Shown here in pieces: positions 1,170 to 25,000 of a stretch of 64,000 nucleotides of DNA (position 1 is the stretch's first letter; the number at the start of each line of letters is the position of its first letter). The notes under the pieces were generated by a model. The model saw nothing but the letters and a program-made list of their open reading frames with translations. It was not told the origin of the DNA and made no database searches. The DNA lies in the NCBI GenBank assembly GCA_051531975.1, contig JAOPTT010000006.1, forward strand, positions 160,656 through 224,655. The letters are read 5' to 3'. The translations under genes were made by a program, and so were the position numbers. Origin of the DNA: Spirochaetaceae bacterium. Lineage in GTDB: Bacteria; Spirochaetota; Spirochaetia; DSM-2461.

Positions 1170-1274
1170 TCAATTCATTAATAAGATAATAACCGTTTGT
1201 GACATTACAATTAAAATAACGATTCCAGCCGAAATGAATAGAACCTTTCCATTGGCGACACTCATGTAGTCCAT
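1170..1274 (-). pseudogene. Truncated 5' fragment of a DUF5058-like membrane protein gene
   Basis: SD GAGG then MDYMSVANGKVLFISAGIVILIVMSQTVIILLMN*; resembles DUF5058 N-termini from memory; directly downstream of the kinase gene. Confidence 0.55.
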
Positions 1275-1290
1275 TTTTTATTCCTCTGTT

Positions 1291-6852: not shown

Positions 6853-7196
6853 AATTTAATTATATCTTTTAATCAGTTAAATACAAGTTGTTTTTAGGAG
6901 TCCATGTTATAACACGTGCAGCAATATCGAATTTATATTCTAATTACTAATTTGTAATATATTTACTTACATAAACTATTATATATGCTTTCGTATTGTG
7001 GTAATTACTCTACATTATAAATTTTATTATAGAAATCTTTCATCTTTAAAACTATACATAGTGATTTACTCCATACCGTTACTTCAGGTTTGGGACAATT
7101 TAATCTAGAAAAGTTTCACCATTAAAATGGTATAGTTGTAGTAATTTTGATTGTGATAATATTAAAATTTTAAATAAGGGACATAATATTCTTATT

Positions 7197-7860
7197 TTGG
7201 TACTTCTATCGTGTTTAGATTCAATAATTCCAGACCTCTTAAAAGAGGAATCTTTAGAAACCACAAGAATATGGTCTTTAGCTGGAAGACTAGAAAATGA
7301 ATCAGTATTTATTAGAAAACCTCCAATAAGAAAACCTCACCATGGAGCATCATTAGAAGGTTTAGTAGGTGGAGGGAAACATCATCAGCCAGGTGAAATA
7401 TCATTAGCTCATAACGGTTACCTGTTTCTAGATGAAATAGCAGAGTTTAAAACTTCCATAATTCAAAGTCTAAGGCAACCAATGGAGGAGTGAAGAGTAT
7501 CACTAAATAGAGCAAAAGTATCTACCTGGTAACCTGCAAACTTTAGGTTAATAGCAACTGCAAACCCATGTCCATTTGCAAACCTAGGTAAAGAAGATGG
7601 TATCTGTATGTGCTTAGAAAAGAGATTAGATGGTACTGGAGACGAATTGTGGAGTAATTATGGATAGGATAGATATTATGGTTCCTGTTACTCCTGTTTT
7701 AACTAAAGTTATGCTAGAGGATTAAGGTGCTAATTCTAAGGATATATAGATGAAGGTTGATATTGCTGTTAATAGACAAAGAACACGATATAAAGACTCT
7801 TCAATAACTTGTAATGCCAGAATACCATCTGGAGAAATTGATAAGTTCTGTTATCTATCT
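7197..7860 (+). pseudogene. comM: comM/yifB (Mg-chelatase-like AAA+) 3'-half remnant, copy A
   Basis: [52 protein letters not shown]; in-frame stops (TGA 7491) and frameshifts; no N-terminal half. Confidence 0.9.
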
Positions 7861-8294
7861 CAATAGTATGTGACATATTATGCGTAGTTTAAAAATAATA
7901 TAACACATAGATTAGCAACAATCCCCACGAGGTTAAATTTCGGTCGATTTTTGTATAATTATTGACAACCATGTAAAATAGGATTCATAATCACACTATA
8001 CATGTTAATATTTGTCCTGAATTTGAACACTACTCAAAAATAGATTAAAGCACATTTCTGTAGTAACAATTCTTGGCCCGTGACAATGTGACAAATGAAT
8101 GATTACCACAATGTTTTTAGAGAAACAGTGCAATAATCTTGCATTAGATTTTAAGTGGCTGGAGTTTTTTTTTAGAAAATATTGCAGTTCTGATATAGAA
8201 TATTGATAGAGTATTTAAGAAAAAGAATTTATTGGCTTTAAAGCCGATAGCTATACAAAGCTATAAATTATCCCCCAGAGAAAATGGAGACGAT

Positions 8295-10529
8295 ATGAAC
8301 AGAATAAAAAGCATTTTATTGATATCAGTAATATTATTGATAACACTATTAAGTAGTTGTGCCACTGTCGAGGTTCGTGCAGCAAAGAAAGGGGATATAG
8401 AATCCCTTAAGAAATTTATTGATAAAGGCGGCGACGTTAATGAGCCAGAAAAGGGTGGAACAACCCTACTCATGTATGCTTCAGAAGCCGGTCAGACTCA
8501 AGTCATCAGTTTTTTACTGGATAAAGGGGCAATTATCAGTCTCAAAGATAACAACGGACGAAGCGCATTTATTTATGCAGTCATAGCCCGAAAACAGGGC
8601 GCTGCCCAGCTGCTTCTACAGAGAGGTGCTGATGTAAACATAGTTCTCTCTTCAGGTGATTCTGCCCTAACTCTTACGGCTCAATCTCAGAATCAGAATA
8701 TGATAAAAATACTTCTAGAAAACGGAGCTGACCTGAATCATAAGAATTATGGTGGATGGTCTGCACTGACTCTCAGTCTCAGCAAGGATGCTCAAGGGCC
8801 TACAGGGATAAATAAGGCCAGCACTATTCTGATAGACCTGAATGCCGATCTGGACCCTGATTCTGGGAATGTTCGTATAGTGGCCTTTTCAGCAGCCTCA
8901 TCGGGAAATAAAGACGTCCTTAAATATCTGCTGGATCTAGGATTAGATCTTGAAAGTAAGTCCGATAAAGGGGCGACCCTTCTACTAACTGCTGTTTTAG
9001 CACAGAAAATCGAAATGGTACGTTATCTCCTGAATCTTGGAGCCGACTGGTCTGTAAAGGATTCATCAGGATGGTCAATCCTTATGAAATCCCTGTATGA
9101 CAGTGCTTCTAAAGGTAAAGGGCTGGATACAATTGCAAAACTTCTTATGGATAAAGGTGCCCGTCCGGAAGGCTCTTCACCACATGGTGTAACCACAGGA
9201 TACAAGGCTGGAGAGAAAGGGGCAGTAGAGATACTGAGCCTTCTCATTGATAACGGACTCTCTCCTAATATCAAGGATTCATCGGGATGGTCAATTCTTA
9301 TGAAATCCCTATATGACAGTGCTTCCAATGGTAATGGGCCAGATACAATTGCAAAACTTCTTATGGATAAAGGCGCCCATCCGGAAGGCTCCTCTCCACA
9401 GGGTGTAACTACAGGATACAAGGCTGGAGAGAAAGGGGCAGTAGAGATACTGAACCTTCTCATTAATAACGGACTCTCTCCTTATATCAAGGATGCAAAA
9501 GGCAATAGCCTTCTAATTATTGGTATTGCACATACAAAGATTGTCAAGCTGCTGATTTCCTTGGGTGTTCCTGTAGATGGTAGAAACGAGCAGAGATATA
9601 CTCCTTTGATTATGGCTGCAGCCGGTGGCTATAGAGATTCACTTTCTCTCCTCTTGCGGGCAGGTGCAGAACCGGACCTCAGGGATAACAATCGCCAGAC
9701 AGCTCTGTTATATGCAGCCGGAACCTCAGATGTTGAAATGGTTCGTAAACTGCTGATTGCGGGAGCTTCTCCCCATACCACCGATAAAACAGGTAATACA
9801 GCTCTACATAAAGCAGCAGCTAAAGGTGTTCCAGAAACAGTTCGCCTGTTACTGACATCTGGAACCTATGTGGATTCTGCAAATGCTCAGGGAGATACAC
9901 CCTATGTTCTAACTTATAAAAACAAGAAACAAGGTTCTAGCATAAGAGAAATACTGGCAATAGGGGGTGCAAAGGTTCCTGTAGAAAAGCCGACAATCGT
10001 AGAAAAACCGACAATCGTAGAAAAACCGACAATCGTAGAAAAACCGATAATCGTAGAAAAACCGATAATCGTAGAAAAACCGATAATCGTAGAAAAACCG
10101 ATAATCGTAGAAGTGCCGACAATCGTAGAAGTACCGACACCTAAACCACAGCCTGCTTCACCAGTAGAGCCTGAAGCTGGCACACAACCTGACCTAACAG
10201 TCCGATTCGGTTGGCCTTCTATCAACCCTTCAGACATAAGAGGCTGGAATAACAGTGATAAGATGATTGGAACAGCTACACTACAGATCGGCTACAGTTC
10301 AGAATCATCATGGTTTTACGAGCACACAATGGATATTCCAAGAAAAGGTGTAAATGCCGACAGCTATGAAGCAAATCTTGATTTTGGAAATAGAACCTTA
10401 GACCCCTGTAAAGCAGTTTTAACTATTCCTACCAAGAAAGGAAATGCCCTAGTATGTGAAATCACAGTTCAACCTGACCTGGATGGTAGAATGATTCTGT
10501 ATTTTGAAGATTTCATATATAAAAAATAG
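8295..10529 (+). CDS. Ankyrin-repeat lipoprotein with Pro-rich linker and unknown C-terminal domain
   Basis: SD GGAG before ATG 8295, lipobox LLSSC, many ankyrin motifs (GNTALHKAA, TPLIMAAA); visibly higher GC than flanks. Confidence 0.9.
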   Translation: MNRIKSILLISVILLITLLSSCATVEVRAAKKGDIESLKKFIDKGGDVNEPEKGGTTLLMYASEAGQTQVISFLLDKGAIISLKDNNGRSAFIYAVIARKQGAAQLLLQRGADVNIVLSSGDSALTLTAQSQNQNMIKILLENGADLNHKNYGGWSALTLSLSKDAQGPTGINKASTILIDLNADLDPDSGNVRIVAFSAASSGNKDVLKYLLDLGLDLESKSDKGATLLLTAVLAQKIEMVRYLLNLGADWSVKDSSGWSILMKSLYDSASKGKGLDTIAKLLMDKGARPEGSSPHGVTTGYKAGEKGAVEILSLLIDNGLSPNIKDSSGWSILMKSLYDSASNGNGPDTIAKLLMDKGAHPEGSSPQGVTTGYKAGEKGAVEILNLLINNGLSPYIKDAKGNSLLIIGIAHTKIVKLLISLGVPVDGRNEQRYTPLIMAAAGGYRDSLSLLLRAGAEPDLRDNNRQTALLYAAGTSDVEMVRKLLIAGASPHTTDKTGNTALHKAAAKGVPETVRLLLTSGTYVDSANAQGDTPYVLTYKNKKQGSSIREILAIGGAKVPVEKPTIVEKPTIVEKPTIVEKPIIVEKPIIVEKPIIVEKPIIVEVPTIVEVPTPKPQPASPVEPEAGTQPDLTVRFGWPSINPSDIRGWNNSDKMIGTATLQIGYSSESSWFYEHTMDIPRKGVNADSYEANLDFGNRTLDPCKAVLTIPTKKGNALVCEITVQPDLDGRMILYFEDFIYKK
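9057..9488 (+). repeat. Intragenic tandem duplication, 2 x 216 bp (72 aa)
   Basis: AAGGATTCATC(A/G)GGATGGTCAAT starts at 9057 and 9273; near-identical units. Confidence 0.95.
9981..10139 (+). repeat. 18-bp coding tandem repeat, ~9 units (VE[K/V]P[T/I]I)
   Basis: GTAGAAAAACCGA(C/T)AATC units read directly. Confidence 0.97.
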
Positions 10530-10760
10530 AAGCAGTATCCTGACCGTTCCTCCCAGAATAGTCGGGAAACGGTTTTCTCATTCAATGCCCCAAACTACCT
10601 ATTTATCCGGTTATACGTCGGTAGCAGGGGGTAATACCAACTCTTATACAATTTAAATCTATTTGACTCCCGAGACATTTTGCTTTCCTAGAGGAACTCA
10701 GGCTTCAGTATTGATAACTTTGTTCAGAATCTTACAGATATGGCACGAGTTAATCTCGTG

Positions 10761-10855
10761 GAATATCGTCACTAGTAGGCAGACTAGAAAATGAATAAGT
10801 ATTTATTAGAAAACCACCCCAAACACACACCATGGATCTTCATTAGGAGGTTTAG
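10761..10855 (+). pseudogene. comM: comM remnant, copy B1 ([11 protein letters not shown]...HHGASLEGL region)
   Basis: AGACTAGAAAATGAAT.AGTATTTATTAGAAAACC and CACCATGGA.C.TCATTAG.AGGTTTAG align to 7268-7365. Confidence 0.85.
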
Positions 10856-10867
10856 AATAATAGATAT

Positions 10868-11725
10868 TTAATACTCATCAAGAAAGCTATGCTTCTCCTT
10901 ATTTTTTGTCCAGCCAATTATTGCATCGGTAAATATATTTTTACTGGACATAAATATACTTTTATCAACATCCTGAAATGTTTCTCCAAGTTTTTTAATT
11001 AGATCTTTAACCTCACGTCTTTTACTAGATGTTTTTTTAGCGGCTACAATACAACCACAATTCATGGCATTTAGTCCATTTTCAGATGTGAACTCTTTTA
11101 TATCGTCCTCTCTAACATAATATAGTGGTCTAATTAACTCCATATTCTCAAAATTAGTTGATTTTAATTTAGGCATCATTGTTTGATATTTACCAGAGCA
11201 TAGAACATTCATCATTATTGTCTCTATTACATCGTCATAGTGGTGACCTAATGCGACTTTGTTACATCCTAACTCCTCTGCCATAGCGTAGAGTGCTCCC
11301 CGCCTCATTCTTGCACATAGGTAACATGGATAGTCATTTGCTATTTTATCTACTACCTTAAATACATCTCTATCGAATATTTTTAAATCGATATCTAAGT
11401 GTTTGCAGTTACTCTTTAGTTGATTCTTATTAGCTTCATTAAAACCAGGATCCATAGAGATAAAGTGAAGGTCAAACTTAAAAGGACCGTGTTTTTGAAG
11501 TTCTTGAAATAGTTTTGCCATTAATAGACTGTCTTTCCCACCGGAAATTGCAACAGCTATTGAATCTCCTTCGTTTACAAGTCCAAACTCTTTAATACCC
11601 TTTATAAAAGGGGTCCATAGAGTTTTTCTCATAGTAGTAATTAGACATTTCTCTATATCTTTAACTGATTGTAGAGCATTTTTAGGTATTATTAACTCAC
11701 AACCACTTCCTGAAACTCCTGACAT
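10868..11725 (-). CDS. ttcA: tRNA 2-thiocytidine biosynthesis protein, TtcA family
   Basis: PP-loop SGGKDS, CYLCARMRRG, ALGHHYDD, LIRPL, C-x-C; SD GGAGG favours the ATG at 11725. Confidence 0.88.
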   Translation of the reverse strand: MSGVSGSGCELIIPKNALQSVKDIEKCLITTMRKTLWTPFIKGIKEFGLVNEGDSIAVAISGGKDSLLMAKLFQELQKHGPFKFDLHFISMDPGFNEANKNQLKSNCKHLDIDLKIFDRDVFKVVDKIANDYPCYLCARMRRGALYAMAEELGCNKVALGHHYDDVIETIMMNVLCSGKYQTMMPKLKSTNFENMELIRPLYYVREDDIKEFTSENGLNAMNCGCIVAAKKTSSKRREVKDLIKKLGETFQDVDKSIFMSSKNIFTDAIIGWTKNKEKHSFLDEY

Positions 11726-11920
11726 TATCATCCTCCGTTTGTAGGATATTATTTAGGAAATTGGTAATGAAATCAAGATAATATACACTAATATTGATAG
11801 TATAATTATTTCTATAATTTGTAATCCTTAATTTAAGGGATTGAAGATCCTGAGAATTTAAAGTTGAACACATATAAAATATATATGAAGGGAATGGTAA
11901 AGCTCTGAAAAAGTTTTAGA

Positions 11921-12607
11921 TTTAGTTGGAGGAGGTAAACATCATCTATCAGGAGATATCTCTCTAGTTCATAATGGTTATATGTTCATAGATGAAATAG
12001 CTGAGTTTAAAACTTCTATAATACAAAGTTTAAGAAAGCCAATGGAGGAGAGAGTGGTATCTTTGAATAGGGCAAATGTTTCAGCTTGGTATTCTGTAAA
12101 TTTTAGACTAATAACAACAACTAACCCATGCTCATGTGTAAACTTAGGTAAAGAAGATGGTATTTGTATGTGCTCTTAAAAAGAGATTAAACGATATTGG
12201 AAACGAATAGGTTTCGCAATTATAGATTGGATTGAAATAAGGGTTTCTGTGTTTCCTATTCAACTAAAGTAATGCTTGGGATAATGGTGCTAATTCAAGG
12301 GATATTAAGATGAAGTTTTATCTTGCTGTTAATAGACAAAGAAAACGATATAAAGACTTATTAATCTCCTGTAATGCTAAGAATATCATCTATTGAAATT
12401 GATAAGTTTTGCTACCTATCTGAAGAATTAAAACAGATGTTTATTAAAAGTATTAACTCCTTGTCTTTATCATCAAGAGGTTGTCATTCTGAACTTAAAT
12501 GTAGAACTATTGCTGATTTAGAAAGGTCAGAAAACATAACATAGATACATATAATAGATGCATTTACTTATAGAAGGTATAAAGATGAGGATTATTATTT
12601 TAGTTGA
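11921..12607 (+). pseudogene. comM: comM remnant, copy B2 (LVGGG to the natural stop)
   Basis: [39 protein letters not shown]; multiple stops and frameshifts. Confidence 0.9.
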
Positions 12608-12668
12608 ATATGTCCAATCCAAGTTTATGTTTTTATTTCAATTTTAAATCACCACTTCCATTTTATAA

Positions 12669-12697
12669 TTGACAATAAATAAGCTGTCTTATATAAT
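12669..12697 (+). promoter_or_regulatory. Consensus sigma70 promoter of the leaderless caspase-family gene
   Basis: TTGACA-17 nt-TATAAT, ATG 6 nt later, no SD. Confidence 0.85.
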
Positions 12698-12703
12698 TAT
12701 TTT

Positions 12704-13912
12704 ATGAAAAAGTTATATTTCTTTCTAATATTTATCTTAATTAGTTTTAATTTAATATATTCTGAAAATAGAGTAGCTCTAGTAATTGGCAACGGAAATT
12801 ATTCCAGTAGTCCTCTTAAAAATCCTGTTAATGATGCAAAAGATATGGCATCAACTCTTAAGACTCTAAATTTTGAAGTTATACTTTTAACAGACTCTAC
12901 TAAAAGAGAAATTTTATCAGGTTTTAAAACCTTTAGTAATAAATTAAATTCCGAGAGTGTAGGGCTTTTCTATTATGCAGGACATGGAACACAAATAGAT
13001 AATAAGAATTATTTAATTCCTATAGGTGCTAACATAGAAACAGCTTCTGATGTTGAATTCGAAGGTGTGGTCCTAGACCGTCTTATTAGAACCATGGAAG
13101 ATTCTAAGGTAAATAAGAGTCTAATATTTTTAGATGCGTGTAGAGATAATCCTTATGCTTCTTCAAGTAGATCAGGAACTAGAGGTTTAACAGTCGTTTC
13201 TACAACTTTAAGTGCAGATTCTGCCGGATCATTAATATCTTTTGCAACCAGTCCTGGATCGGTTGCTGCAGATGGTGATGGCGATAATGGTATATTTACA
13301 ACCGCATTGTTAAAATATTTGACAGAACCTGGGTTAGAAATAAACCAAATAATGGTAAAAGTTCGTGCTAATGTCATGGAAAATACAAATGGACAACAAC
13401 AACCATGGACAAATGTTTCGTTAACAGAGGAGTTTTACTTTTCTAAAAAAATTATCGAAACTGTTGAAACTGTTGAAGTTATTAACACTGATAGTCCTTT
13501 AGTGGTTGAACCCGTAATTACTCCTAACTCCAAAATAAACAAATGGTATATTGATACAGGTTTCGTTTTTTTATACCACGATTCAACAGAATCAGGTCAA
13601 ATTGCTTTTCCTGGTATTAGTATTGGTGCTTCATATACAATTTCCAATTTTATATCTTTAGGTATAGCAGGAGCTTTAGTTAATAAAATGTTTATAAATA
13701 CTGGTACAGAAATGGAAGATGAAGGGGAAGAAGGCTTATACCCTGGAGGTTATGTTACTGTATCTATTGGTAATGTTAAAAATGGAGCTGCAATTAATGT
13801 AATTCTGGGACTACCAATTGGTTTCGGTATTTCATACAAGAACCTTTTTGTTAACTTCTTAACACTTGTAGATTATGGTGGTTCAGGTTTACAAATTGGT
13901 TATTCATTTTAA
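12704..13912 (+). CDS. Secreted caspase-family (peptidase C14) protein with C-terminal beta-barrel-like domain
   Basis: Signal peptide; RVALVIGN, YYAGHG and LDAC catalytic dyad; amphipathic C-terminal strands ending GYSF. Confidence 0.88.
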   Translation: MKKLYFFLIFILISFNLIYSENRVALVIGNGNYSSSPLKNPVNDAKDMASTLKTLNFEVILLTDSTKREILSGFKTFSNKLNSESVGLFYYAGHGTQIDNKNYLIPIGANIETASDVEFEGVVLDRLIRTMEDSKVNKSLIFLDACRDNPYASSSRSGTRGLTVVSTTLSADSAGSLISFATSPGSVAADGDGDNGIFTTALLKYLTEPGLEINQIMVKVRANVMENTNGQQQPWTNVSLTEEFYFSKKIIETVETVEVINTDSPLVVEPVITPNSKINKWYIDTGFVFLYHDSTESGQIAFPGISIGASYTISNFISLGIAGALVNKMFINTGTEMEDEGEEGLYPGGYVTVSIGNVKNGAAINVILGLPIGFGISYKNLFVNFLTLVDYGGSGLQIGYSF

Positions 13913-13941
13913 ACTATACATATTAATTTCCGAAATATATA

Positions 13942-13969
13942 TAGATTAATAGAAACTGCAAATCCTTGC
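13942..13969 (+). pseudogene. comM: Tiny comM remnant, copy C (RLIETANPC)
   Basis: 23/28 nt match to copy A TAGGTTAATAGCAACTGCAAACCCATGT. Confidence 0.55.
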
Positions 13970-14341
13970 ACATACTATGGTTTTTTAAGCTAATGTAGAA
14001 AATCTCCCAATTAGATTACTTCTCTCTAAAGATCTCGTGTGTTTCAAGTAGACACACAAGGGCAAATAAAGGTTATATAAGTTCGTCAATTTTAGATTGT
14101 ATTAGAAAAGTAGAAAGTTTATCCATAATTCGATCACATTTATACCCATAGTGGCTTTGTTTATTCTCCCAGGAATATGATTGCTTCACATAAGTCTTTT
14201 CGTTTTGTCATTGTAATAATATATTCATAAAAATTAATTTAATATCAAATGATAGCCCCAATTGGTAAGCTCTGTTCTTGAATAAAAAGATTGTAATTTT
14301 ATCAGAAAATTGATTTAGAATTATCATTTTAGATTTTAATA

Positions 14342-14484
14342 ATATAAAAGTTGAATAAAAACAACAAGGATTATTCATAAATCCTACTAAAATGGTATAT
14401 AATAAGAATTTTAGGTTTTATATATATAAAGTTGCATAAAAATAACAAAATTCATTCATATATCCTACCAAAATGGTATATAAT
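14342..14484 (+). repeat. Tandem duplicated ~62-bp promoter-like unit (period ~81 bp)
   Basis: Two copies of AAAGTTG.ATAAAAA.AACAA...TTCATA.ATCCTAC.AAAATGGTATATAAT. Confidence 0.85.
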
Positions 14485-14525
14485 TAAATTATATATTTTA
14501 TATTATTAATTGTAGAGGATATATC

Positions 14526-17504
14526 ATGAAAATTAAAAGAACAGGAATTATTAAAAGTTATTTATTTATATCAATCTTATCTATTATATTAGGCGCTTGT
14601 TCTAACCCTTTGATTACTGACCTGATGGAAACACTGGAAAATGATGTCGTTGAAGCTCAAGCCGGTGACCCTCCTGTTTTGGAATCTTTGAATGTTGCAG
14701 ATGGCGCTGTAGATATCTCCACCTCAATTGTTCTCTCAGTCGAATTCAAAGTTGAAATGGATCCTCTTACAATAATAAGTGAAAATATAACCCTTTCTAA
14801 AGCCCAGAATGATGTCGTTATAAGTTCTGCTATTGTATATGACGATGCTACAAAAACATTTTCTCTAACTCCTTCGTCAACTCTTGATAAAGAAGCTGAA
14901 TATAAGCTTTCTATCACTACCAGTGTTAAGAGTCTACAGGGTGCTGCTCTTGAGAGTGAAATTGTCAGAAATTTTACAACCAGATATTTTCATGATACAG
15001 AAGTTGGAATCCAACTGTATTATTCCAGCAACAATCTTGTCTTGAATTCTGGAGCACCAATTTATATTGAATTCTGGTCATCTCCTCTTCAATATGTTCC
15101 CAGTAATACACCAACAACGATCCTTGTTCTTTCATCCCCTGTAATAACATCTGCCGGTAAAATTGCTATTCCTATTTCATCCTTTCCAGCGGGTTTTTCT
15201 TCAGGTATGTTTAAGTTTTTTCATGATATAAATGGTAGCTATGGATCTGATTCAGATTCAGATGATAGTGCAGATTCTATTTATTGGTATAACTCTTCTG
15301 GTAGTGGTAATATGTCTCCTGATGATAGTGAAGATTCCGGTTATGAATTCATGGTAAACCAGGATGTTAATGATCGTTTTATGTTTGTAGATTCTGGGGG
15401 GACTTCTATTCCTGTTGATGGAAGTGGTTTGCCAACTTCTACTCCTGCTTTCTACAGTTTGAAAGATAATTTTCTTTTATCAGCAGGTAATGGATATACT
15501 ATAAACTATACTGATGGAAGTGCATTTGCAGCTGATCCTTTTGAAACAGCTGAATCTTCAAATAACTATAGAAACATTGATCATGGTACTTACGAGATCG
15601 CTAGAAATCTTCATTCTCTGGATGATGTTGATTATTTTACATTTACACCAGCATCTAGTGATGTTTATGAAATTCGTGTTAATGAATCAGAATTTGAATT
15701 TCAGGTGGGACTGTATTCTAGCGAGTCTAATATGTTAACTGATTCTAGTCCTCTTGCTACTCCGAACAATGGTTCAGCTGCCCGTGTTGTAAACGGCACT
15801 GGGACATTTCTTACAGGAGGATCTACATATTATATACGAGTTGAAAGCCCTTCCAGTGGAATGGGACCCTATGAGATTGGATATTTTTACAAACCTGCCA
15901 CACCAGATGCTGCTGAAGATGCAGATGATGTTATAGGCACCGCTCCTGCATTAACCTTAGGAAGGTCAAATGCGCTTACCAGAACCCTAGAAGCAGGTAG
16001 CGACACAGATTATTATTCTTTTGACCTGGTTAATGGATGGGATTACATTGTTGAAGTTGTAGAAGATCCAACTTATTTCAATTTTTCAGCAGAATCCAGA
16101 AATATTGATTTTAATCTCAGGTTTTACAAAGATGGTACACCACAGGGATCCTTTGCTCCATTTCCTAATACGATGATTATCCCAGGTTCCGATGACTGGA
16201 ATTACCCCGATACAAGCAACTACCATATTGAAGTTCAGAACAACTCAACACCGATTGGTGATGAACAGGATCTACCAAGTGGTCAGTACAAGATACTTAT
16301 AACATATTCTTTCGACGGGAGTGATCAGGCTAATAATCCAAATACAGACCCAACAAATGAATATGATAATTGGAACGAACACGGTCCGGCCTCTTACCAG
16401 GCATCGGTTTATGTCTCTCCAGGAACTAAGGGAAGGGAACGGACTATCTACTCTACTACTGAAGTAAATCCTGAGGATGATGTAGACTGGATAAGGTTTT
16501 ATGTTGCAGATATATATGATTATTACAATTTTAAGGCTGAACCTATAGCTGGAGCCGACGGAGTTGTTGTTGACTTTGAAATCTATGGTTCAACTACTGT
16601 ATCAAGTGAGATTGTACCGGATACAGGTTCAGGCTCAGTAGCTTCATCTCAGCAATGGGTATCAGACACATCAATAAGAACAGCCAGTTTTTATCCACTT
16701 ACTGCCCGGACTTATGTTGATGAATCAAATCCAAGCTCTGAAGAACACTACTGGTGGGCGAAGGTTACAAGGGACTCTTCACATTCGGGTAATCCTATAA
16801 CCGGAGCTTATAACTTTAAATATCTGACAGGTCCCGACTGGATGGATATAGATTATCCGGACTCAGAGGTTGATGTATATTCAGGAACTTATGCTGAAAA
16901 TAATATTGTTTATACCGGCGGAATGGATGAAACGCCATGGATAGGAAAACCATTTTCAGATGCTGGCTATGATTTTGAGACAAGAAATGAACTTATCTGG
17001 GGAAATATGGGTGGAAATCCAGATATTGAGATAGAGTACAACTCATTGTTTAGAAGAGATTATAATTATTCTTCTTCAGGTGAATGGGACGGTGTGACTG
17101 ATAAAGGTACAGATTTTGATTTCAAGTGGTTCCAGATGCCTACAAGTCCACCAACTATTATACCTTTTAATATTGTAATCTACTCAAGGGCTGAATATAC
17201 AATACCAGTTAAACTTAGTGTCTGGCGGATTACTCAGGCTCAATGGACTACATTATCATCAGACAGATATATCACTGAAGCTGAACTAAACGCAACAGAT
17301 ACGCCAACACTTTATTATACTAGTTATGAAACAGGTGAAGAAACCGATAAACTTGAAATTATTGATTATTCAGATGTAGCGGAAACAGATTATATATTCA
17401 TGAAATTTGAAATTGATGATTCTAGAACAACATATGTAGACGGTGACGGAGTGACACAGAATTATTCGAATTCTGGAGCATATCAAATCTGGATATTCAG
17501 ATAG
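14526..17504 (+). CDS. Large acidic surface lipoprotein with Ig-like (Big_5/SbsA-type) domain and PPC-like repeats
   Basis: Lipobox LGAC; Ig-like LTPSSTLDKEAEYKLSI...FTT; repeated DxDY/W-x-F motifs. Confidence 0.8.
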   Translation: MKIKRTGIIKSYLFISILSIILGACSNPLITDLMETLENDVVEAQAGDPPVLESLNVADGAVDISTSIVLSVEFKVEMDPLTIISENITLSKAQNDVVISSAIVYDDATKTFSLTPSSTLDKEAEYKLSITTSVKSLQGAALESEIVRNFTTRYFHDTEVGIQLYYSSNNLVLNSGAPIYIEFWSSPLQYVPSNTPTTILVLSSPVITSAGKIAIPISSFPAGFSSGMFKFFHDINGSYGSDSDSDDSADSIYWYNSSGSGNMSPDDSEDSGYEFMVNQDVNDRFMFVDSGGTSIPVDGSGLPTSTPAFYSLKDNFLLSAGNGYTINYTDGSAFAADPFETAESSNNYRNIDHGTYEIARNLHSLDDVDYFTFTPASSDVYEIRVNESEFEFQVGLYSSESNMLTDSSPLATPNNGSAARVVNGTGTFLTGGSTYYIRVESPSSGMGPYEIGYFYKPATPDAAEDADDVIGTAPALTLGRSNALTRTLEAGSDTDYYSFDLVNGWDYIVEVVEDPTYFNFSAESRNIDFNLRFYKDGTPQGSFAPFPNTMIIPGSDDWNYPDTSNYHIEVQNNSTPIGDEQDLPSGQYKILITYSFDGSDQANNPNTDPTNEYDNWNEHGPASYQASVYVSPGTKGRERTIYSTTEVNPEDDVDWIRFYVADIYDYYNFKAEPIAGADGVVVDFEIYGSTTVSSEIVPDTGSGSVASSQQWVSDTSIRTASFYPLTARTYVDESNPSSEEHYWWAKVTRDSSHSGNPITGAYNFKYLTGPDWMDIDYPDSEVDVYSGTYAENNIVYTGGMDETPWIGKPFSDAGYDFETRNELIWGNMGGNPDIEIEYNSLFRRDYNYSSSGEWDGVTDKGTDFDFKWFQMPTSPPTIIPFNIVIYSRAEYTIPVKLSVWRITQAQWTTLSSDRYITEAELNATDTPTLYYTSYETGEETDKLEIIDYSDVAETDYIFMKFEIDDSRTTYVDGDGVTQNYSNSGAYQIWIFR

Positions 17505-17595
17505 CATGATAATAGTTGCGAGCGTAGATTACCGTACAATTATCAACCTGTCCTGTTTTGAAGAATATACTAATTACGATTAAAGGAAGAACAAT

Positions 17596-19680
17596 ATGAG
17601 AGAAGTCAGATATTATTTAATTATTTGTTTATTTTTAAGTCTAGTCACTTTGTTATCAGCCCAGAATTCAAATTTCTCTATTGATCTCAATCCTAAAATA
17701 AGTATACCAATGCGGACAAGCGCCGACCTCTATTCAATTGGTGGAGGTGCAGTTTTATCCGGTACATATGATCCATCATTACCTTATTATATTAAGGGAG
17801 GAATAGGATATGAATTAATCCCCACTCTAGCTACAGAAAATATGAATTTAATAACAGGTTCTATTGGTGGTGGATTACGACTTGATATTGGTGATTTTAT
17901 TACTTACCGCCTAGGTGCTTATGGTGGTGCTTATCTTGTCTCATACGACGATATAACAGCGTGGAACCCTTATGGTGGCGCAGAGACCGGATTACAGTTT
18001 AATATTACAAAGTCAATTCAAGTTTCGTTAATGGGATCATATGATTATTATGTTGGAGAAATTCTTACAACTCCATCTATTTCAGAAGAGTCTTTTTTTG
18101 AAGGAGTATCTGCATTTATAGGAATTTCCTTTAATCCCGGAGCTATCTCAGGCTCTGGTATAAGACGTCCTCGAATGGAAATTTTCCCACCTTCGTTTAA
18201 TTCAATCTTTCCAGTATTTTATCAATACTACAACGATAATACTTTAGGTTCTGTAATAATTCGTAATGATGAAAAAAATACTATTACAGATGTTAAGGTA
18301 AGTTTTTTTGTTAATCAGTTTATGGAAGCCCCAAAACTAAGTGCAGTAATAGATGAATTAAAGAGTGGGGAAGAAGTAGAAATACCTTTATATGGTTTAT
18401 TTAAAGATTCTGTTCTGGGAGTTACTGAAGTTACTACAGTAACTGCACAGATTTTTGTTGAATATAATGAAGATGAAGATATCTTAAATACCTCTTTTTC
18501 TGAAAGTATAAAAATATTAAACCGAAATAATATGACCTGGGATGATGATAGAAAAGCTGCTGCATTTGTTACAGCCAATGATCCTACAGTTCTTAGATTT
18601 GCCCGAAATATTGCTTCATCAATAAGAAGTGATAGAAAAACTGCTGTAAATGAAAATCTGAGAAATGCAATGGCTATTTTTCAGGCTTTAAATATTTTTG
18701 GTATGAGATATGTCATCGACCCTGATTCGTCCTATATTGAATTATCTGAAAATGAAAAATTTCTTGATTTTCTTCAATTTCCCCAACAAACATTGGATTA
18801 TCGAACAGGAGACTGTGATGATTTATCTATTCTATATTCTGCACTACTTGAATCAGTTGGAATTCGAACTGCATTTATTACTATTCCAGGTCATATTTAT
18901 ATGGCTTTTGCTCTAGATATGGATGAAAAAAAAGCAATTAAAACATTTTCACAACCAAATAATTTAATTATTGTAGATGATGAGGCCTGGGTACCTGTTG
19001 AGATAACAATGATGAAAGATGATTTTCTGTCTGCCTGGAAAACAGGAGCAAAACAGTGGAGGGAAAATAATCCCGTAGGGCTCGCAGGGATGTATAAGAT
19101 AAGAGATGCATGGAAAACTTATTCTCCTACAGGATTTGCATCAACAGCTTTAGATGTGAATGTTCCTCAAACAACAGAAGTTTTACCTAATTACTTAAAA
19201 ATTTTGAATACTTTTATTAAACAGGAAATTGGTCCTCGTGTAATAGATCTGAAAAAAAGAATTATTGCTAGTAACAATAATCCCCGGGTAATAAACAGTC
19301 TAGGAATATTATATGCTAGATATGGTTTATATGATGAAGCTAGTGAACAATTTAATCTTGCTGTTAAAACAGATGAATATCTTCCGTCCCTTATTAATCT
19401 TGGAAATATTGCTTTTTTAAATAAAGAAACTGAAATAGCACGTGGTTATTTGGAGCGTGCCAGAGTTGTTAGGGATGATCATCCAAAAGTTCTTGTGAAA
19501 CTTGCTAGAATACATTTTGATCTTGAAGAATATAAAAAGGCAACTAAAAGGTATAGAGAAGCAGAGGTCATTGATCCAGAAATTGTCCAGGCTTATAGTT
19601 ATATTGTTAACGAAAATAAAGATTCAGCTAGAGCCTCTGCAGCACAGGAACGTAATATAGTTTCATGGGATGAGGAATAA
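17596..19680 (+). CDS. Secreted protein: beta-barrel-like N-terminus, transglutaminase-like core, TPR tail
   Basis: Signal peptide, Gly/aromatic alternating strands, GDCDD...PGHI...WVPVE, TPR-like C-terminus. Confidence 0.75.
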   Translation: MREVRYYLIICLFLSLVTLLSAQNSNFSIDLNPKISIPMRTSADLYSIGGGAVLSGTYDPSLPYYIKGGIGYELIPTLATENMNLITGSIGGGLRLDIGDFITYRLGAYGGAYLVSYDDITAWNPYGGAETGLQFNITKSIQVSLMGSYDYYVGEILTTPSISEESFFEGVSAFIGISFNPGAISGSGIRRPRMEIFPPSFNSIFPVFYQYYNDNTLGSVIIRNDEKNTITDVKVSFFVNQFMEAPKLSAVIDELKSGEEVEIPLYGLFKDSVLGVTEVTTVTAQIFVEYNEDEDILNTSFSESIKILNRNNMTWDDDRKAAAFVTANDPTVLRFARNIASSIRSDRKTAVNENLRNAMAIFQALNIFGMRYVIDPDSSYIELSENEKFLDFLQFPQQTLDYRTGDCDDLSILYSALLESVGIRTAFITIPGHIYMAFALDMDEKKAIKTFSQPNNLIIVDDEAWVPVEITMMKDDFLSAWKTGAKQWRENNPVGLAGMYKIRDAWKTYSPTGFASTALDVNVPQTTEVLPNYLKILNTFIKQEIGPRVIDLKKRIIASNNNPRVINSLGILYARYGLYDEASEQFNLAVKTDEYLPSLINLGNIAFLNKETEIARGYLERARVVRDDHPKVLVKLARIHFDLEEYKKATKRYREAEVIDPEIVQAYSYIVNENKDSARASAAQERNIVSWDEE

Positions 19681-19708
19681 CGTTTATGAAATATTTCTAT
19701 GTTAAAAT

Positions 19709-20278
19709 ATGGTGAAAAATTGTACAATTAAAAATATATTTCCAGGTGAATATTATGTTTCAAATAGAGGCGAAGTAATTTCTACAATTCTTGGTTCATG
19801 TATATCAGTTTGTCTTTACGACACAGTCAATAACATTAGTGGTATGAATCATTTCATGTTACCAGAAAGACTATCATCAGCTTTTGTTACTAATGATTAT
19901 GATTTTGATAGTTCATCACTTCTTAACAATTCTCTACGTTATGGTGCTTACTCTATGGAGTTATTGATAAATGAGATTATTAAATTGGGTGGTGAAAAAA
20001 AGTACTTGAATGCTAAGGTCTTTGGTGGTGGTAAAGTTCTCAATTATATAAGTGATAGACAATCTATTGGAGAGCAAAATACTGATTTTGTATTAGCTTT
20101 TTTAAAGGCTGAAAACATTGAAGTTATCAGTAAAGATGTAGGTGGTAATACTGGTCGTCAGATTAAGTATTATACAGATCGAGATGTAGTATATGTAAAG
20201 AATATACCTATAAGTGGTATTCCAGAAGTTGAAGAAACTATACCAGAAACTGGTAAAGTTATACTCTTCAATATATAA
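19709..20278 (+). CDS. cheD: Chemoreceptor glutamine deamidase CheD
   Basis: PGEYY, TILGSCISVCLYD, GMNHFMLP, AKVFGGG, DVGG..GR. Confidence 0.92.
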   Translation: MVKNCTIKNIFPGEYYVSNRGEVISTILGSCISVCLYDTVNNISGMNHFMLPERLSSAFVTNDYDFDSSSLLNNSLRYGAYSMELLINEIIKLGGEKKYLNAKVFGGGKVLNYISDRQSIGEQNTDFVLAFLKAENIEVISKDVGGNTGRQIKYYTDRDVVYVKNIPISGIPEVEETIPETGKVILFNI

Positions 20279-20289
20279 AATAGAGAGTC

Positions 20290-20712
20290 TTAATTAAAGA
20301 ACTCTTTAAAGGAATCAAAACCTTTAAATTTTGCATCTATCAAAGCAACATAAGTTTCTTCATTAGATGAGAAAAAAGTTCCTTTTTTTGAGCTATAATG
20401 AACAGCTTGATTTTTTAAAATGCTTTCTTGAATATTTTTATCCACTATAATAATAAAAGTACTGGTGCTATCAGGATTATCTTTTAATCTATTTGAATGT
20501 GATTTCATATACTCTAAAAAATCTTGAGGACCCAAATCCCACAGTCTAAAATCCAAAATCATAACCCAAGGTTTTTCTATTTTTGGTCTAATTATATCTA
20601 ACTCTTTTTCAAGATCGATAAAGAGTTCAACATTTGTTGATCCTTCTATACTTACATATAATATATCAAGAAATAATTTAATTTTGTATTTACCATGAGC
20701 ACGTTTAATCAT
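20290..20712 (-). CDS. Hypothetical protein (STAS/SEC14-like alpha/beta)
   Basis: 140-aa ORF with own promoter TTGAAA-17-TAATAT; PWVMILDFRLW motif. Confidence 0.6.
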   Translation of the reverse strand: MIKRAHGKYKIKLFLDILYVSIEGSTNVELFIDLEKELDIIRPKIEKPWVMILDFRLWDLGPQDFLEYMKSHSNRLKDNPDSTSTFIIIVDKNIQESILKNQAVHYSSKKGTFFSSNEETYVALIDAKFKGFDSFKEFFN

Positions 20713-20870
20713 AATTTAATATTAAGTCAGACAAAGGTGCATTTCAAGAGCTACAATTTACTTCTGTGTAATATTCTTCTTAATACAGATATAAATATAC
20801 TCTTAAACTCTCGAGAATATTCTTTTCCGTCAAAGTACTTAAAATCAGTTAATGAAGATTTTTATTATGA

Positions 20871-21752
20871 CTAGAAAGGTATGATAGGTATGTCATTATT
20901 GCAATTATTATTTTTTAGTTCAAAAAAGTTATTCCAGTTAATACCTCGTTCATTGGCTGCAACTTTCATCTCTTTTAATGAGGGCTCAGATAATTCAGGT
21001 GTTCTGGACACAATTAGAAAAATATTATCGATTCTAGGTCTTGGAATTTGTGTTTTAGCACAGATGGCAAACATTCTAGCATCATCTGTTTTATGCAGAA
21101 GTTTCCAAACCTCAGTTGTTTCTGTGTCCCACATTACTAATGTGGTTCCAAACTGTCTCTCTTCTATTCCATGTGCAGCAATATATTCTGCTAACTGTCG
21201 CCTTATAAGGCCTCTCATAGCTGTTTTAACCTGATATTCGATATGTAATTTCCAATCACCATCTGTTGCCTCAACAAAATTCATAAAAGAACAGTCCCAG
21301 TTATCCCAGGAATCTGTATGCGTTCTCCACCACTTCCCACTATGTTCGTTAAGGTTCATTTTTAGGGGTGGATTATTAAAAGATATAGGTTTCTGTGGAG
21401 TTACATCATCATCCTTATACATATTAGCGCATTTTATTACTGCACTCCTAGAAAAAGATGCTAGCTGTTTTGTTGGGTATTCATCTAAAATTCGTGCACT
21501 ACATATATCAGAATCTTCAGGTACTTCCATATGTTGTAACTCTTTAATTTGGTTTTGAACCCGTTTGCTATTTTTGTCTCCACATTTAGTCAATTCCTGA
21601 AGACCTTCTCTACTTTCAGGGTCTCTTAGACAGGCAAATAGTTCTGGACCACATTTTATTATCATACATCCCAAAACGGTTCTTTTGAGTAGAATAATAC
21701 CTATGATAAGTAGAAATAACGTAATAATAGAAATTAACAAAGCTATTGGCAT
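20871..21752 (-). CDS. Violaxanthin de-epoxidase-like (VDE/VDL) Cys-rich lipocalin protein, N-terminally anchored
   Basis: SD GAGG before ATG 21752; TM helix; CMIIKCGPELFAC, GKWW..D.WDC, VSRTPEL, AANERGINWNNF..KNNNC parallel plant VDE motifs. Confidence 0.65.
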   Translation of the reverse strand: MPIALLISIITLFLLIIGIILLKRTVLGCMIIKCGPELFACLRDPESREGLQELTKCGDKNSKRVQNQIKELQHMEVPEDSDICSARILDEYPTKQLASFSRSAVIKCANMYKDDDVTPQKPISFNNPPLKMNLNEHSGKWWRTHTDSWDNWDCSFMNFVEATDGDWKLHIEYQVKTAMRGLIRRQLAEYIAAHGIEERQFGTTLVMWDTETTEVWKLLHKTDDARMFAICAKTQIPRPRIDNIFLIVSRTPELSEPSLKEMKVAANERGINWNNFFELKNNNCNNDIPIIPF

Positions 21753-21831
21753 ATGTACCTCGAATTTTAGTATAGGTTTACATCTATGAGTGTGCAAGAG
21801 TTTTATACACTATTAAATACAGCTAGTAGTT

Positions 21832-21910
21832 TATTAACATTCTTTATCACAAAGAGGTTGTCATTTCCTTATAGAATATATGGTGTATGAGGATCATTGT
21901 TTAAGTTGAA
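21832..21910 (+). pseudogene. comM: comM extreme 3'-end remnant, copy D, internally deleted
   Basis: 21841-21865 matches 12464-12488 at 23/25; 21868-21910 matches 12567-12608, including the terminal AGTTGA. Confidence 0.75.
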
Positions 21911-22015
21911 TTCTTGTGCTTTTACTTAAACATGGTAGCTTTTTAGGATATATCTTGTTTTCTTAGTATTCTTAAATTAAAGTTATAATATAATGATCTT
22001 GAAAGAGGTATAAAG

Positions 22016-25000
22016 TTGATAACAAATAGATTATTCATAAAAAATCTCATAATCATCAACTACTTTTTACTTTTATCTTTTAATATTTTTTCAGGTGATA
22101 TCAATCAGATTGCAAAGGAAAACCTCATATTTGATACAGTATATGAATTGTCAGAAATGTGTGAAGGAGGCCTGATTAAAGATAATGAAGGTTTTTTATG
22201 GATTTCAACACAAAACGGTTTGTATAGATTTGACGGTCTTACCACAGAGTACCGTGGAGGTAAATATCTATCTAGTAGAATCACTACCAGTATATTAATT
22301 GATTCTGAAGGTCTTATCTGGATTGGAACTAAAGGTGGAGGACTTAATAAATACGATAAATGGCAAGATTCTTTCACATCCTATAAGCATGATACCGAGA
22401 ATCCCCAAAGTATAAGTAGTGATTACCTACCACTTATAGGTCAACAGCTTTTACTTGAAGACAATGAGGGGTACATCTGGATTGCCACAGAAGAAGGATT
22501 AAACAGACTTGATAAAAAAAATGAGATATTTACGCATTATTTTCACAATGCAAATAAAGCAAATAGTTTAAGCAGCAACCGGATAAGCGCTCTCTATCAG
22601 GATAGAGAGGGAATCATATGGATTGGAACATTTGACTCAGGTCTGAACAGATATGATCCAGGGGAAAAGATATTTAAACATTTTAAAAATGATAGCCGCG
22701 ATTTAAAAAGCCTTAGTGATAATTATATACTGTCCATATTCGAAGATTCATCAGGAAGGCTCTGGATAGGAACCGATGGTGGAGGTCTGAACTATTTTGA
22801 TAGAACAAATGAGACGTTCATAAATTACATGCCATCGGAAGATGATTCTAACAGTATAGGCGATGATAACATATATACAATATTAGAAGACAGGGATGGT
22901 TGGTTATGGCTCGGTCACCATCTCGGTGATAAAACTGGTTTGACCCTTTTCAATCCGGATACAGATCATTTTATTTCCTATGGTCATGATGAACATAATT
23001 CTCATTCTATTACGACTAACTCAATTACAGATTTCTGGCAGGAGGAGGACACTGGAATAATCTGGATTTTAAACCATTTCGGAATCATTCAGAAATACGA
23101 TCCAGAAAGTAGAAAGATTCAACTCCATCGTCATGATCCTGTAAATCCTTTTAGTATAAGCGATAATATGGTCTTACCTCTACTTTTTGATAGAAATAAT
23201 GATTTATGGATAGGTACTATATCAGGAGGATTGAATAAAATGGATTTGGAAACAGATCGTTTTTACAGCTTTATGCCAAATGAAGATAATCCTCAAAGGA
23301 CAGTTTTTTCAGGAGCGGTCTTAGAAGATTCTGACGGGGAATTCTGGTTAGGAAATATGGAAGCCAGCATCAGTAAATATGACCCTTTGACTAACACTGT
23401 TTTAGAAAAGTATTCTTATAATCCTGATAATCCTAGTAGTATAGCTGATACATCGATGGTCACATCAATTATTGAAGATGAAGAGAACAAAGGAATATTC
23501 TGGATGGCTAGTTTCGCCACAGGTCTGTTTAGTAAATTTGACAAATCAAAGGGGGTTTTCACAAACTATCCTGCACTGTCAAGTATCTCAATGATTTTTG
23601 ATGATGGGCAGGGAGACATTCTCATAGCCAGCCAGGGACATGGTCTCGTTAAATTCAATAAAAACTCTGAACAATATCATTATTATAAACATGATGAAGA
23701 AAATATTCAGAGTATTAGTGGGGATATTGTCTGGGGCATTTTTAAAGATTCGAAAAACCGTATTTGGGTGGGAATGGAACAAGGAATCAGTCTTTTTGAA
23801 GAGAAATCCGGAACCTTTAAAAATTACAATCCCAATACCGGATATGAAATCTATCAGGGTTCTAATTTCCTCGAAGATAAAAAAGGAAATATCTGGATAA
23901 GCGGGAATCAGATTACGAAATTCAATCCCGAATCTGAATCTGTTAAAATTTATACGTCAACTGATGGAAGCCAAATAGGTGTTTTCTTCAGGGAATCTGC
24001 TGCCATAGCTCCTGACGGAAGGATGTTTTTTGGAGGCAGCGAAGGTTTAAATAGTTTCTACCCCGAGAAATTAAAGGACAATCCCTATATCCCACCGATT
24101 GTGCTTACATCTTTTAAACAGGGAGGGAACATATTAGATTTAGGAACAGCACCGGAGATTGTCGAAGAGATAATCCTTGACTGGAAAGTCAATTTTTTTG
24201 AATTCGAATTTGCCTCCTTAAATTTCACAAAACCTGAAAATAATAACTATGCTTATATGTTGGAAGGGTGGGATAACAATTGGTATTATTCAAATTCCAT
24301 TAGAAGTGGACGATATTCAGGTCTGAAACCGGGAAGTTATATATTAAAATTGAAAGGAACCAATAATGATGGTCTGTGGAATGAAGTGGGAACTTCAGTT
24401 AATATTGTAATTACAACTCCTTTCTGGCAGAGATGGTGGTTTATTTCAATCTCCATAATTCTTATAACGGGTCTATTATTCTCTATGGTTTTCTTGAGAA
24501 TCAGATCCATTGAATTAAAAAAAATAAAACTTGAGAAACAGGTTGATATACGAACAAAAGAACTTAAATCAGCAATTGAAGAAGCTGACTTGGCAAAAGA
24601 AAAAGCAGAAGTAGCGAATAAGGCCAAAAGTATGTTTCTATCAAAAATGAGCCATGAGTTAAGAACACCACTCAATGGGATATTGGGTTATTCTAAAATT
24701 CTAATGAGAGACAAAAATATTATTCATCGACAATATGAAGGATTGAATATTATTTACCAAAGCGGGACACATCTTCTGACTTTAATAAATGATATCCTCG
24801 ATCTTGCAAAAATCGAAGCAGGTAAAATTGAATTGGAGTTTGCAGACGTTTTATTTCCCGAGTTCCTGCAAAACATAGTAGACCTTATGTCTTTGAGTGC
24901 CTCTGCAAAATCTCTAGATTTTCAATATGATATACCGGAAAAACTACCTGAAGGGATTTATACCGATCGAAAGAAACTACGGCAAATTCTCATTAATCTA

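Follow-up and report, generated by a model that had tools for sequence, protein, structure and literature searches.

Displaced 3′ ends of comM between unrelated cargo units in a spirochaete genome, consistent with serial integration at one comM site

We analyzed a 64,000-nucleotide (nt) stretch of DNA from a Spirochaetaceae bacterium (hereafter the window; positions 160656–224655 of contig JAOPTT010000006.1, here called C6, in an assembly of 5.46 Mb, 29 contigs and 31.5% GC) in which degraded pieces of the gene comM lie between unrelated genes. Plain positions below are in window numbering, C-prefixed positions are contig coordinates, and G-prefixed labels denote genomes, with G000 being the present one. 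The original prediction, made from the window's letters, listed five pieces of the 3′ half of comM, all on the plus strand, and remarked that no 5′ half was visible. A whole-genome search with the Pfam Mg_chelatase family found an intact comM at C6:150725–152239 (plus strand), 8.4 kb before the window, whose 504-amino-acid product scored 540 bits on the YifB/ComM model TIGR00368 (cut-off 362). The remark about the 5′ half therefore holds inside the window but not for the locus, in which the intact gene lies upstream with one further fragment between it and the window.

To collect all comM-derived pieces in the genome we searched with the genome's own intact ComM (tblastn) and with its gene (blastn), judging weak pieces by their local alignment score against 300 shuffles. 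The resulting order was intact comM, unit A, fragment F1, unit B, F2, unit C, F3/F4, unit D, F5 and a set of kinase genes, with every fragment on the plus strand and downstream of the intact gene. F1 (C6:156990–157843, plus strand), which precedes the window, matched comM nt 658–1514 with 86.9% nucleotide identity (blastn); it was complete, and in the tblastn alignment it stayed in a single frame over 287 codons, with three stops. F2 (7209–7867, plus strand) matched nt 673–1333 with 90.5% identity, was truncated at its 3′ end, and contained five stops and three indel codons; compared with F1 it also has a deletion of 31 nt, flanked by two TCATG repeats. Its tblastn match began at position 7170 (ComM residue 204), within a comM-like flank (7170–7208, plus strand; comM nt ~610–657) that has scrambled Walker A (P-loop) codons and is common to the F1 flank. 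The next two pieces, F3 (10761–10855, plus strand; comM nt 731–829, 81.8% identity) and F4 (11918–12605, plus strand; comM nt 822–1513, up to the stop, 82.5% identity, with two stops, six indel codons and two frameshifts), had been taken for separate scars. In comM coordinates, however, F3 runs to nt 829 and F4 picks up again at nt 816–822, with TTTAG on both sides of a 1062-bp gap, and because the two abut they are the first part and the rest of a single third fragment divided by a 1062-bp insert. F5 (21862–21912, plus strand) is what remains of the final ~50 nt of comM and takes in the stop region; its local score of 50 was equaled by 0 of the 300 shuffles, and blastn gave a weak match at 21862–21902 (E 0.013).

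Four of the five predicted pieces were thus borne out by BLAST and the shuffle test, as was their common orientation. The remaining piece (13942–13969) was rejected as a comM remnant because its score of 27 was reached by 152 of the 300 shuffles. Neither tblastn nor blastn found further comM-derived pieces elsewhere in the 5.46-Mb assembly, where the other matches were either weak hits to AAA+ paralogues or short alignments at chance level, on both strands; the fragments are therefore co-oriented behind the intact gene and not scattered through the genome, as the prediction had required. Decay increased with distance from comM, from the complete F1 through the truncated F2 and the frameshifted and interrupted F3/F4 to the ~50 nt left of F5, a rough gradient of the kind that had been suggested. 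The cargo that the fragments separate (unit A, 4.75 kb; unit B, 10.0 kb; unit C, 2.9 kb; unit D, 9.3 kb) was unrelated between units by Pfam and NCBIfam.

The fragments share not only their orientation but also the region in which they begin. High identity to comM started at nt 658 in F1 and at nt 673 in F2, which places the breakpoint in the region of comM that encodes Walker A. F3 began at nt 731 with faint similarity further upstream, its flank having decayed. The flanks of F1 and F2 were weakly comM-like from nt ~596 and contained the same rewritten P-loop patch, and a 16-mer from this shared flank, TTTTGGTACTTCTATC, occurred at exactly two sites in the 5.46-Mb genome. Judged from its sequence, the shared flank would look like the arm of an element at attR, joined to a displaced gene end. 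The same 16-mer gave 79 matches in viral contigs, which we set aside as chance matches because ComM was encoded at 0 of the 79 loci.

We next compared each fragment with the intact gene by Nei–Gojobori counts of nonsynonymous (dN) and synonymous (dS) divergence. The dN/dS ratio was 0.086 for F1 (dS 0.57), 0.108 for F2 (dS 0.335) and 0.196 for F4 (dS 0.564). The displaced ends thus show coding-type divergence from the functional end, as expected for 3′-end replacement of the type known from the cryptic prophage e14 and from phage 21 at the icd gene of E. coli. There the incoming element supplies its own version of the 3′ end, so that the gene remains whole, and the displaced end persists as a pseudo-end on the far side of the element. 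The low ratios, together with a single frame kept over 287 codons in F1, indicate that the copies diverged as parts of working comM genes, which argues against duplication followed by decay in place and for the import of comM halves from other lineages. Comparing ComM, and a helicase described below, with their congener counterparts separately for the 5′ and 3′ parts was uninformative, as identity showed no step at the breakpoints. The intact comM, F1 and F2 are also mosaic: of the informative sites between comM nt 673 and 938, 21 join the intact gene to F2 and 2 join it to F1, whereas beyond nt 938 the figures are 35 for F2 and 33 for F1, and the maximal chi-square of this partition was reached in 28 of 2000 permutations.

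A self-comparison of the genome led to a second array, the mirror image of the first, at a recQ-family gene (C12:131701–133248, minus strand; 236 bits on TIGR00614, cut-off 220). Here the displaced parts are at least four 5′ fragments, which lie upstream of the gene and are co-oriented with it (C12:135716–136682, corresponding to gene nt 93–1060; C12:142218–142962; C12:134908–134992; C12:145494–145712), and two solitary pieces lie at C17:54843–55038 and at C6:152637–152830, the latter within unit A, ~400 nt after the comM stop. An alignment of five copies, made up of the gene, two C12 fragments and both solitary pieces, showed all of them reaching gene nt 1060, immediately ahead of the codons for the conserved AYGMG-VDK stretch (motif V). 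Past this point the four aligned fragments continue into a conserved arm of ~50 nt, which the intact gene lacks. The recQ-family fragments had dN/dS ratios of 0.11–0.14 at a dS of ~0.5 (0.51–0.55). The cargo in C12:131701–148444 resembles that of the comM array in kind and comprises toxin–antitoxin pairs (MNT/HEPN and Phd/ParE), an rve transposase, a hybrid kinase, a response regulator, PocR and a 630-amino-acid caspase-domain protein.

An nhmmer profile built from the four arms found three more, each preceded by a short helicase remnant: at C12:148391–148444 (E 0.004), at C6:658733–658786 (E 1.5e-5; junction C6:658719–658808), and inside the comM array at window 7012–7089 on the minus strand (match 7021–7076, equal to C6:167676–167731; E 5.5e-7). 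This last arm lies at the right end of unit B, ~120–130 nt before F2 and ~160 nt upstream of the start codon of a kinase gene. Because an arm of the recQ-family array is also present inside the comM array, the two sites are linked to one element family. Solitary junctions of helicase remnant and arm occur at C17:54843–55117, C6:152519–152830, window 7012–7089 and C6:658719–658808, and two of these lie within the comM array, perhaps because composite elements moved en bloc. At window 177–224 (C6:160832–160879, minus strand), also in unit B, the arm model gave a weak match that was indistinguishable from chance (E 0.009). Under stricter filters the arm model found nothing in any of 40 relatives (0/40). 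We took a match in G001 (E 2e-4) to be a false positive, as it lies within a 981-amino-acid open reading frame (ORF) whose translation resembles, by eye, a Reg_prop repeat. The arm had no Rfam match, and three copies folded no better than their shuffles. Nor was the arm convincing as a promoter: the window copy contained 2 promoter-like matches versus 3.3 expected from shuffles, and a C12 copy was slightly above expectation (4 versus 1.5).

The helicase site has been used more than once in the genus. In the congener G003, a decayed 5′ fragment of the recQ-family gene lies 16 kb upstream of the intact copy (G003:C24:11554–29272), and the DNA between them encodes a type I restriction–modification system (HsdR/S/M), a TIR-domain protein, DUF1810 and Fic, with no recombinase by Pfam. 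Since both the present genome and G003 have such fragments with differing cargo, this site has been used repeatedly in the genus.

A third gene has a similar layout. At C9:329080–330123 a 331-amino-acid gene joins M23 peptidase and SSB domains, and its last ~113 codons are copied 17 kb downstream in the same orientation (C9:312198–312599). The copy has a dN/dS of 0.095 and a dS of 0.60, and the duplicated stretch ends exactly at the start of a ~230-bp repeat (considered with unit A below). From its sequence, this gene may represent a third such array. The dS between functional and displaced parts is alike at the three loci (comM–F1 0.57, comM–F4 0.56, helicase 0.51–0.55, C9 gene 0.60), with comM–F2 (0.34) as the exception, which hints at donors of one divergence class.

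We then turned to the relatives. A ComM search of 41 genomes gave matches in two congeners, G001 and G003 (71–72% identity), each of which had a single comM and no fragment; in the 401 genomes of the class that we scanned for the C-terminal half of ComM, more than two matches were found only in the present genome, which had six. A search of genome contigs with ComM returned only a congener metagenome-assembled genome. Upstream of comM, gene order in the present genome is conserved with both G001 and G003. The genes that directly follow comM in these congeners have their counterparts at C6:278146–282984, ~126 kb further on, and the intervening DNA (C6:152240–278145) mixes accessory with core genes, including those for ribonucleotide reductase, formate dehydrogenase, arginine deiminase and glutamate dehydrogenase. 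Gene order between the present genome and G001 is broken in many places. With core genes inside the ~126 kb, the stretch behind comM cannot all be island, and both rearrangement and insertion shaped the region. Two cargo proteins, one of them the Big_5 protein of unit D, were sought in three congeners (completeness 96, 81 and 71%), and neither was found (2/2). The expectation that cargo would vary between related strains was therefore answered in part: at comM, G001 and G003 have no array in which cargo could be compared, but at the recQ-family gene the cargo of G000 and G003 does differ.

The explanation that we favor, and hold to be probable, is tandem accretion, in which elements integrated serially and site-specifically at one comM site, each replacing the 3′ part of the gene. 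Related integrative elements would insert one after another at a single Walker A site (comM nt ~640–700), each bringing, adjacent to its attachment site, a substitute for the 3′-terminal ~860 nt of comM. Every integration would keep comM functional at the start of the array and displace the older 3′ part to a place downstream of the newly arrived cargo. At the recQ-family gene the element would instead supply a substitute 5′ part, the old part being pushed outward together with the element's arm. The displaced ends would then decay, and the mobility genes would be lost or would never have been carried, if the elements were mobilized in trans, leaving accessory cargo such as lipoproteins, an ankyrin protein, a caspase-domain protein, CheD and sensor kinases. 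The anatomy, the common breakpoint, the shared flank, the coding-type divergence, the lack of an array in the congeners and the want of recombinase genes are direct results; from them we infer that site-specific recombination was the joining step, that events followed the order described and that the units were once mobile. Of the two alternatives that the original prediction had offered, the first (repeated integrations that displaced 3′ segments of comM and later lost their mobility genes) is accordingly the best supported, by the intact head gene, the common start of the fragments, the shared flank, the divergence and the age gradient.

Several observations weigh against tandem accretion. 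Recognizable recombinases are missing from where they would be expected: the genome has six matches to the tyrosine recombinase family PF00589 and three to the resolvase-type serine recombinase family PF00239, none of them in C6:150–285 kb, and no match anywhere to the large-serine-recombinase domain PF07508. A search for hidden recombinases in 24 + 16 + 52 ORFs or ORF pieces of the array (Pfam, NCBIfam and PHROGs), the 52 being stop-to-stop pieces from spacers, recovered only rve debris, as did a lenient Pfam search of ORFs lacking an assignment. A replacement part of 860 nt is unusually long for a site-specific element, and the fragment starts do not coincide exactly (658, 673 and 731). The mosaic copies of comM, F1 and F2 indicate that homologous recombination, either gene conversion or crossing-over, acted among the repeats. 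Past F5, ~96 kb intervene before the genes that follow comM in congeners, and this DNA includes at least one core gene, the ribonucleotide reductase, which is 89% identical to a G001 copy that sits elsewhere in G001. No circular or empty-site form was seen in the contigs of one run, and a ComM search of metagenome contigs yielded no closer relative for comparing the cargo.

The remark that no integrase or transposase is visible holds within the window but not just upstream of it, where degraded remnants of rve-type (IS3/IS481-like) transposases lie in unit A at C6:153112–154152. Because the array has no tyrosine or serine recombinase, integration by homologous recombination has to be kept as a rival. 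In this scheme, which we consider unlikely yet the strongest of the alternatives, and which comes near the second alternative of the prediction (comM remnants as homology anchors for transforming DNA), DNA that is circular, or bounded by two comM pieces and derived from another array, brings a 3′ piece of comM and integrates into comM through RecA-type recombination of the Campbell type, duplicating the homologous segment each time, with no dedicated recombinase. It fits the want of a site-specific recombinase in the array and of a large-serine-recombinase domain in the genome; the repeats, at 0.66–0.86 kb and 82–90% identity, are sufficient for homologous recombination, whose action is visible in the mosaic structure of comM, F1 and F2; and the same architecture recurs, with a similar dS of 0.5–0.6, at the recQ-family gene and perhaps at the SSB-domain gene. 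However, the sharp common ends (recQ-family nt 1060 with its arm, and Walker A in comM) arise more easily from a specific site, no circular carrier DNA was seen, and the likeness of comM to F2 over nt 673–938 is not expected from a single crossover; later gene conversion would account for the mosaic in both schemes.

A more speculative reading, to which we give somewhat less credence, is a homology-anchored capture system, in which a family of cassettes without a recombinase of a known kind homes to ATPase- or helicase-motif codons in recombination genes. Its targets may be the Walker A codons of comM, the codons before motif V in the recQ-family gene and perhaps the SSB-domain gene, and each cassette may carry a long replacement of its target plus the ~50-nt arm and be installed by host homologous recombination or by an unrecognized class of enzyme. 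If this were true, gene capture would have helped to inflate the genome, which at 5.5 Mb compares with 2.7–3.7 Mb in the congeners.

The other rivals fare far worse. In segmental duplication, the 3′ region of comM and the DNA downstream would have been copied in place, after which the copies decayed and were overwritten by insertions. The copies are indeed co-oriented and close together, and the genome has many local paralogue pairs. Yet dN/dS values of 0.09–0.20 at a dS of 0.3–0.6 mean that the divergence arose mostly under protein-level selection, the composition of the cargo varies between units, and a self-comparison of C6:148–285 kb revealed no homology between units beyond the comM pieces, kinase paralogues and short repeats; we regard this explanation as close to refuted.

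An assembly artefact or a chimeric bin, with copies contributed by co-assembled strains, also seems very improbable. The single public DNA run that contains the stretch is labeled a metagenome (no RNA run is listed), and at C6:154500–155833, within unit A, depth falls to 1–5x as against ~37x in the rest of a 20-kb stretch; the drop could reflect a gap at a repeat, filtering, or heterogeneity within unit A. But the copies differ by 10–22% and so are not collapsed or duplicated reads, and in a separate assembly of run X1, contigs bridged seven of the eight fragment junctions in the 20-kb stretch with no differences and at an even depth of ~37–40x. Run X1 is probably the source sample, which makes the bridging check independent of the assembler but not of the data. 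One contig joint in this material skips positions 666–7484 of locus L123 (which starts at C6:154500), with a shorter side of 21 nt that is below the reliability mark. Equally hard to credit is a silent-cassette system, in which fragments donate sequence by gene conversion to vary comM as at spirochaete antigenic-variation loci: the host is a spirochaete and the comM/F2 mosaic is conversion-like, but the fragments have stops and frameshifts, decay with distance and lie 3–10 kb apart with unrelated genes in between. Moreover, programmed variation has no evident purpose in ComM, a cytoplasmic ATPase, and the differences among the copies are mostly synonymous.

Both the stacking of islands at one attachment site and the replacement of a gene end are already known. 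In the case of e14 and phage 21 a single element with an integrase supplies a replacement of well under 200 nt, whereas the comM array stacks four units or more, has replacements that are far longer, and lacks an integrase. The closest stacking precedent is that of the ssrA islands of Dehalococcoides, in which 20 bp from the 3′ end of ssrA recur as the boundary of each island and a short conserved motif, non-aligning with the target, marks the insertion point, as set out in the parts of the report that concern these islands (McMurdie et al. 2011, PMC3146451). According to the same parts, 16 islands keep a serine-recombinase module, and many units have no integration module and are read as cis-mobilizable or fixed ('accretion') (PMC3146451). 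As at ssrA, the comM locus has an intact target at its head, with direct repeats of the target's 3′ end bounding the units; unlike the 20 bp of an RNA gene described in those parts, the comM repeat amounts to up to 860 nt (57%) of a constrained protein gene, and no recombinase has been retained (PMC3146451). Searches for tRNA and tmRNA genes in the window and in locus L031 found none. These two sequences also had no Rfam match when gathering thresholds were applied, and loci L123 and L124 had none at E≤1; the array is thus not anchored at a tRNA or tmRNA gene.

The gene itself is a known target. The sections on comM targeting in a recent study describe Tn6022/AbaR and Tsy elements, in which TnsF (together with TnsABC or a tyrosine recombinase) targets the Walker B codons of comM and splits the gene, and there the use of conserved ATPase-motif codons is read as a way to find the target across species (Mol Cell 2023, PMC10293859). 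Our locus shares with the elements of those sections the targeting of comM at conserved ATPase-motif codons; it differs in that the breakpoint is at Walker A, comM is intact, and genes for TnsF, TnsABC and a tyrosine recombinase are absent from our Pfam scans of the array (PMC10293859). It differs as well from the comM islands of large serine recombinases, since the region has no Resolvase match and the genome no Recombinase-domain match. Islands at dusA, which restore their target gene, provide a parallel for the recQ-family array. They insert in the 5′ end of dusA and carry a characteristic integrase, in the description given by the relevant part of a published report (PMC4482086). The recQ-family array resembles the islands so described in being entered near or within the 5′ part of a protein gene, and is unlike them in that no integrase was found and in the length of the replaced 5′ part, ~1060 nt (PMC4482086).

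The idea of an integron-like array with comM pieces in place of attC sites holds as an analogy only. As in integrons, a row of unrelated cargo is separated by repeated sequences that resemble recombination sites beside a fixed platform; unlike in integrons, there is no IntI, attI or attC hairpin, the units are 3–10 kb long and mostly multi-gene, and the repeats are decaying host-gene halves of 0.66–0.86 kb. What is distinctive here is the ~860-nt (57%) replaced part, the Walker A breakpoint, the mirrored recQ-family array with its shared arm and the absence of a recognizable recombinase. A literature search on comM, a term that also matches 'Comm.', found no array with an intact comM and returned only the Acinetobacter/Tn7-like and Tsy work, from which we do not claim that such arrays are absent from the literature.

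The locus would be, on this evidence, a dated record of accessory-gene gain at one spot in an uncultured marine spirochaete, each displaced comM half serving both as a time stamp and as a sample of the comM of the donor lineage. It goes beyond the textbook stacks at tRNA and tmRNA genes in that more than half of a protein gene, from the P-loop codons onward, is replaced, and in that a mirrored array at a second gene shares its arm with the first. Should a joining enzyme be found, it would rank as a new integrase specific for comM and recQ; should there be none, homologous recombination would itself build integron-like arrays.

The cargo units differ in content and composition. Unit A, upstream of the window, consists of insertion sequence (IS) debris and an ORF with MORN repeats. 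It also holds three of the six copies of the ~230-bp repeat family, which has one sharply conserved end; these lie at C6:152327–152553, 153995–154224 and 155444–155582, and the others are at C1:219505–219755, C9:328897–329080 and C2:631634–631737. The first copy in unit A begins 88 nt past the comM stop, and the C9 copy lies 48 nt past the stop of the M23/SSB-domain gene. Because the copy at C6:153995–154224 overlaps the start of the rve ORF remnants, we suspect from its sequence that the repeat is one end of an IS.

Unit B starts at C6:157844, behind F1, and its right-hand part fills window positions 1–7169. Two of its ORFs behind F1 (325 and 541 amino acids) have a lipobox and a signal peptide, indicating secreted proteins or lipoproteins, and an atlas comparison of them gave only a weak PEGA lead (0.77). 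Within the window, unit B contains a 144-amino-acid ORF (280–714, plus strand) and a hybrid histidine kinase of 1853 amino acids (1291–6852, minus strand) in which Pfam recognized Reg_prop, Y_Y_Y, PAS, HisKA, HATPase_c, two receiver domains and Hpt. Unit C (7868–10760, plus strand) encodes a 765-amino-acid ankyrin-repeat protein (8232–10529; Pfam), and with 40.8% GC versus 31.5% for the genome it is compositionally foreign.

The insert between F3 and F4 (10856–11917, minus strand; 1062 bp) carries a gene for a TtcA-like PP-loop ATPase (10868–11731, minus strand; Pfam), so that a TtcA-like gene sits inside a dead comM fragment. Its product scored 202 bits on the NCBIfam TtcA model, below the cut-off of 272, and the gene is an additional paralogue that shares 35% identity with the C14 copy and 34–35% with the copies of the congeners. 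No convincing terminal inverted repeats were found at the ends of the insert, which has TTTAG on both sides.

Unit D (12606–21861), annotated with Pfam and NCBIfam, occupies the space between F4 and F5. On the plus strand it encodes a caspase-domain protein (12704–13912), a 992-amino-acid Big_5 protein (14526–17504), a TPR protein with a faint transglutaminase match (17596–19680) and CheD (19709–20278), and on the minus strand a 140-amino-acid ORF (20290–20712) and a VDE-lipocalin protein (20871–21797). After F5, on the plus strand at 22016–27677, come a hybrid histidine kinase of 1334 amino acids and a kinase/receiver protein of 558 amino acids (Pfam); these genes may be either cargo of the oldest unit or native DNA.

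Elsewhere in the genome, nearby direct repeats of gene parts with 78–92% identity occur at C1:147885–160034, C2:478696–484095, C5:192188–201436 and C10:213762–219546. Some of them overlap broken ORFs, and those might be further displaced gene ends.

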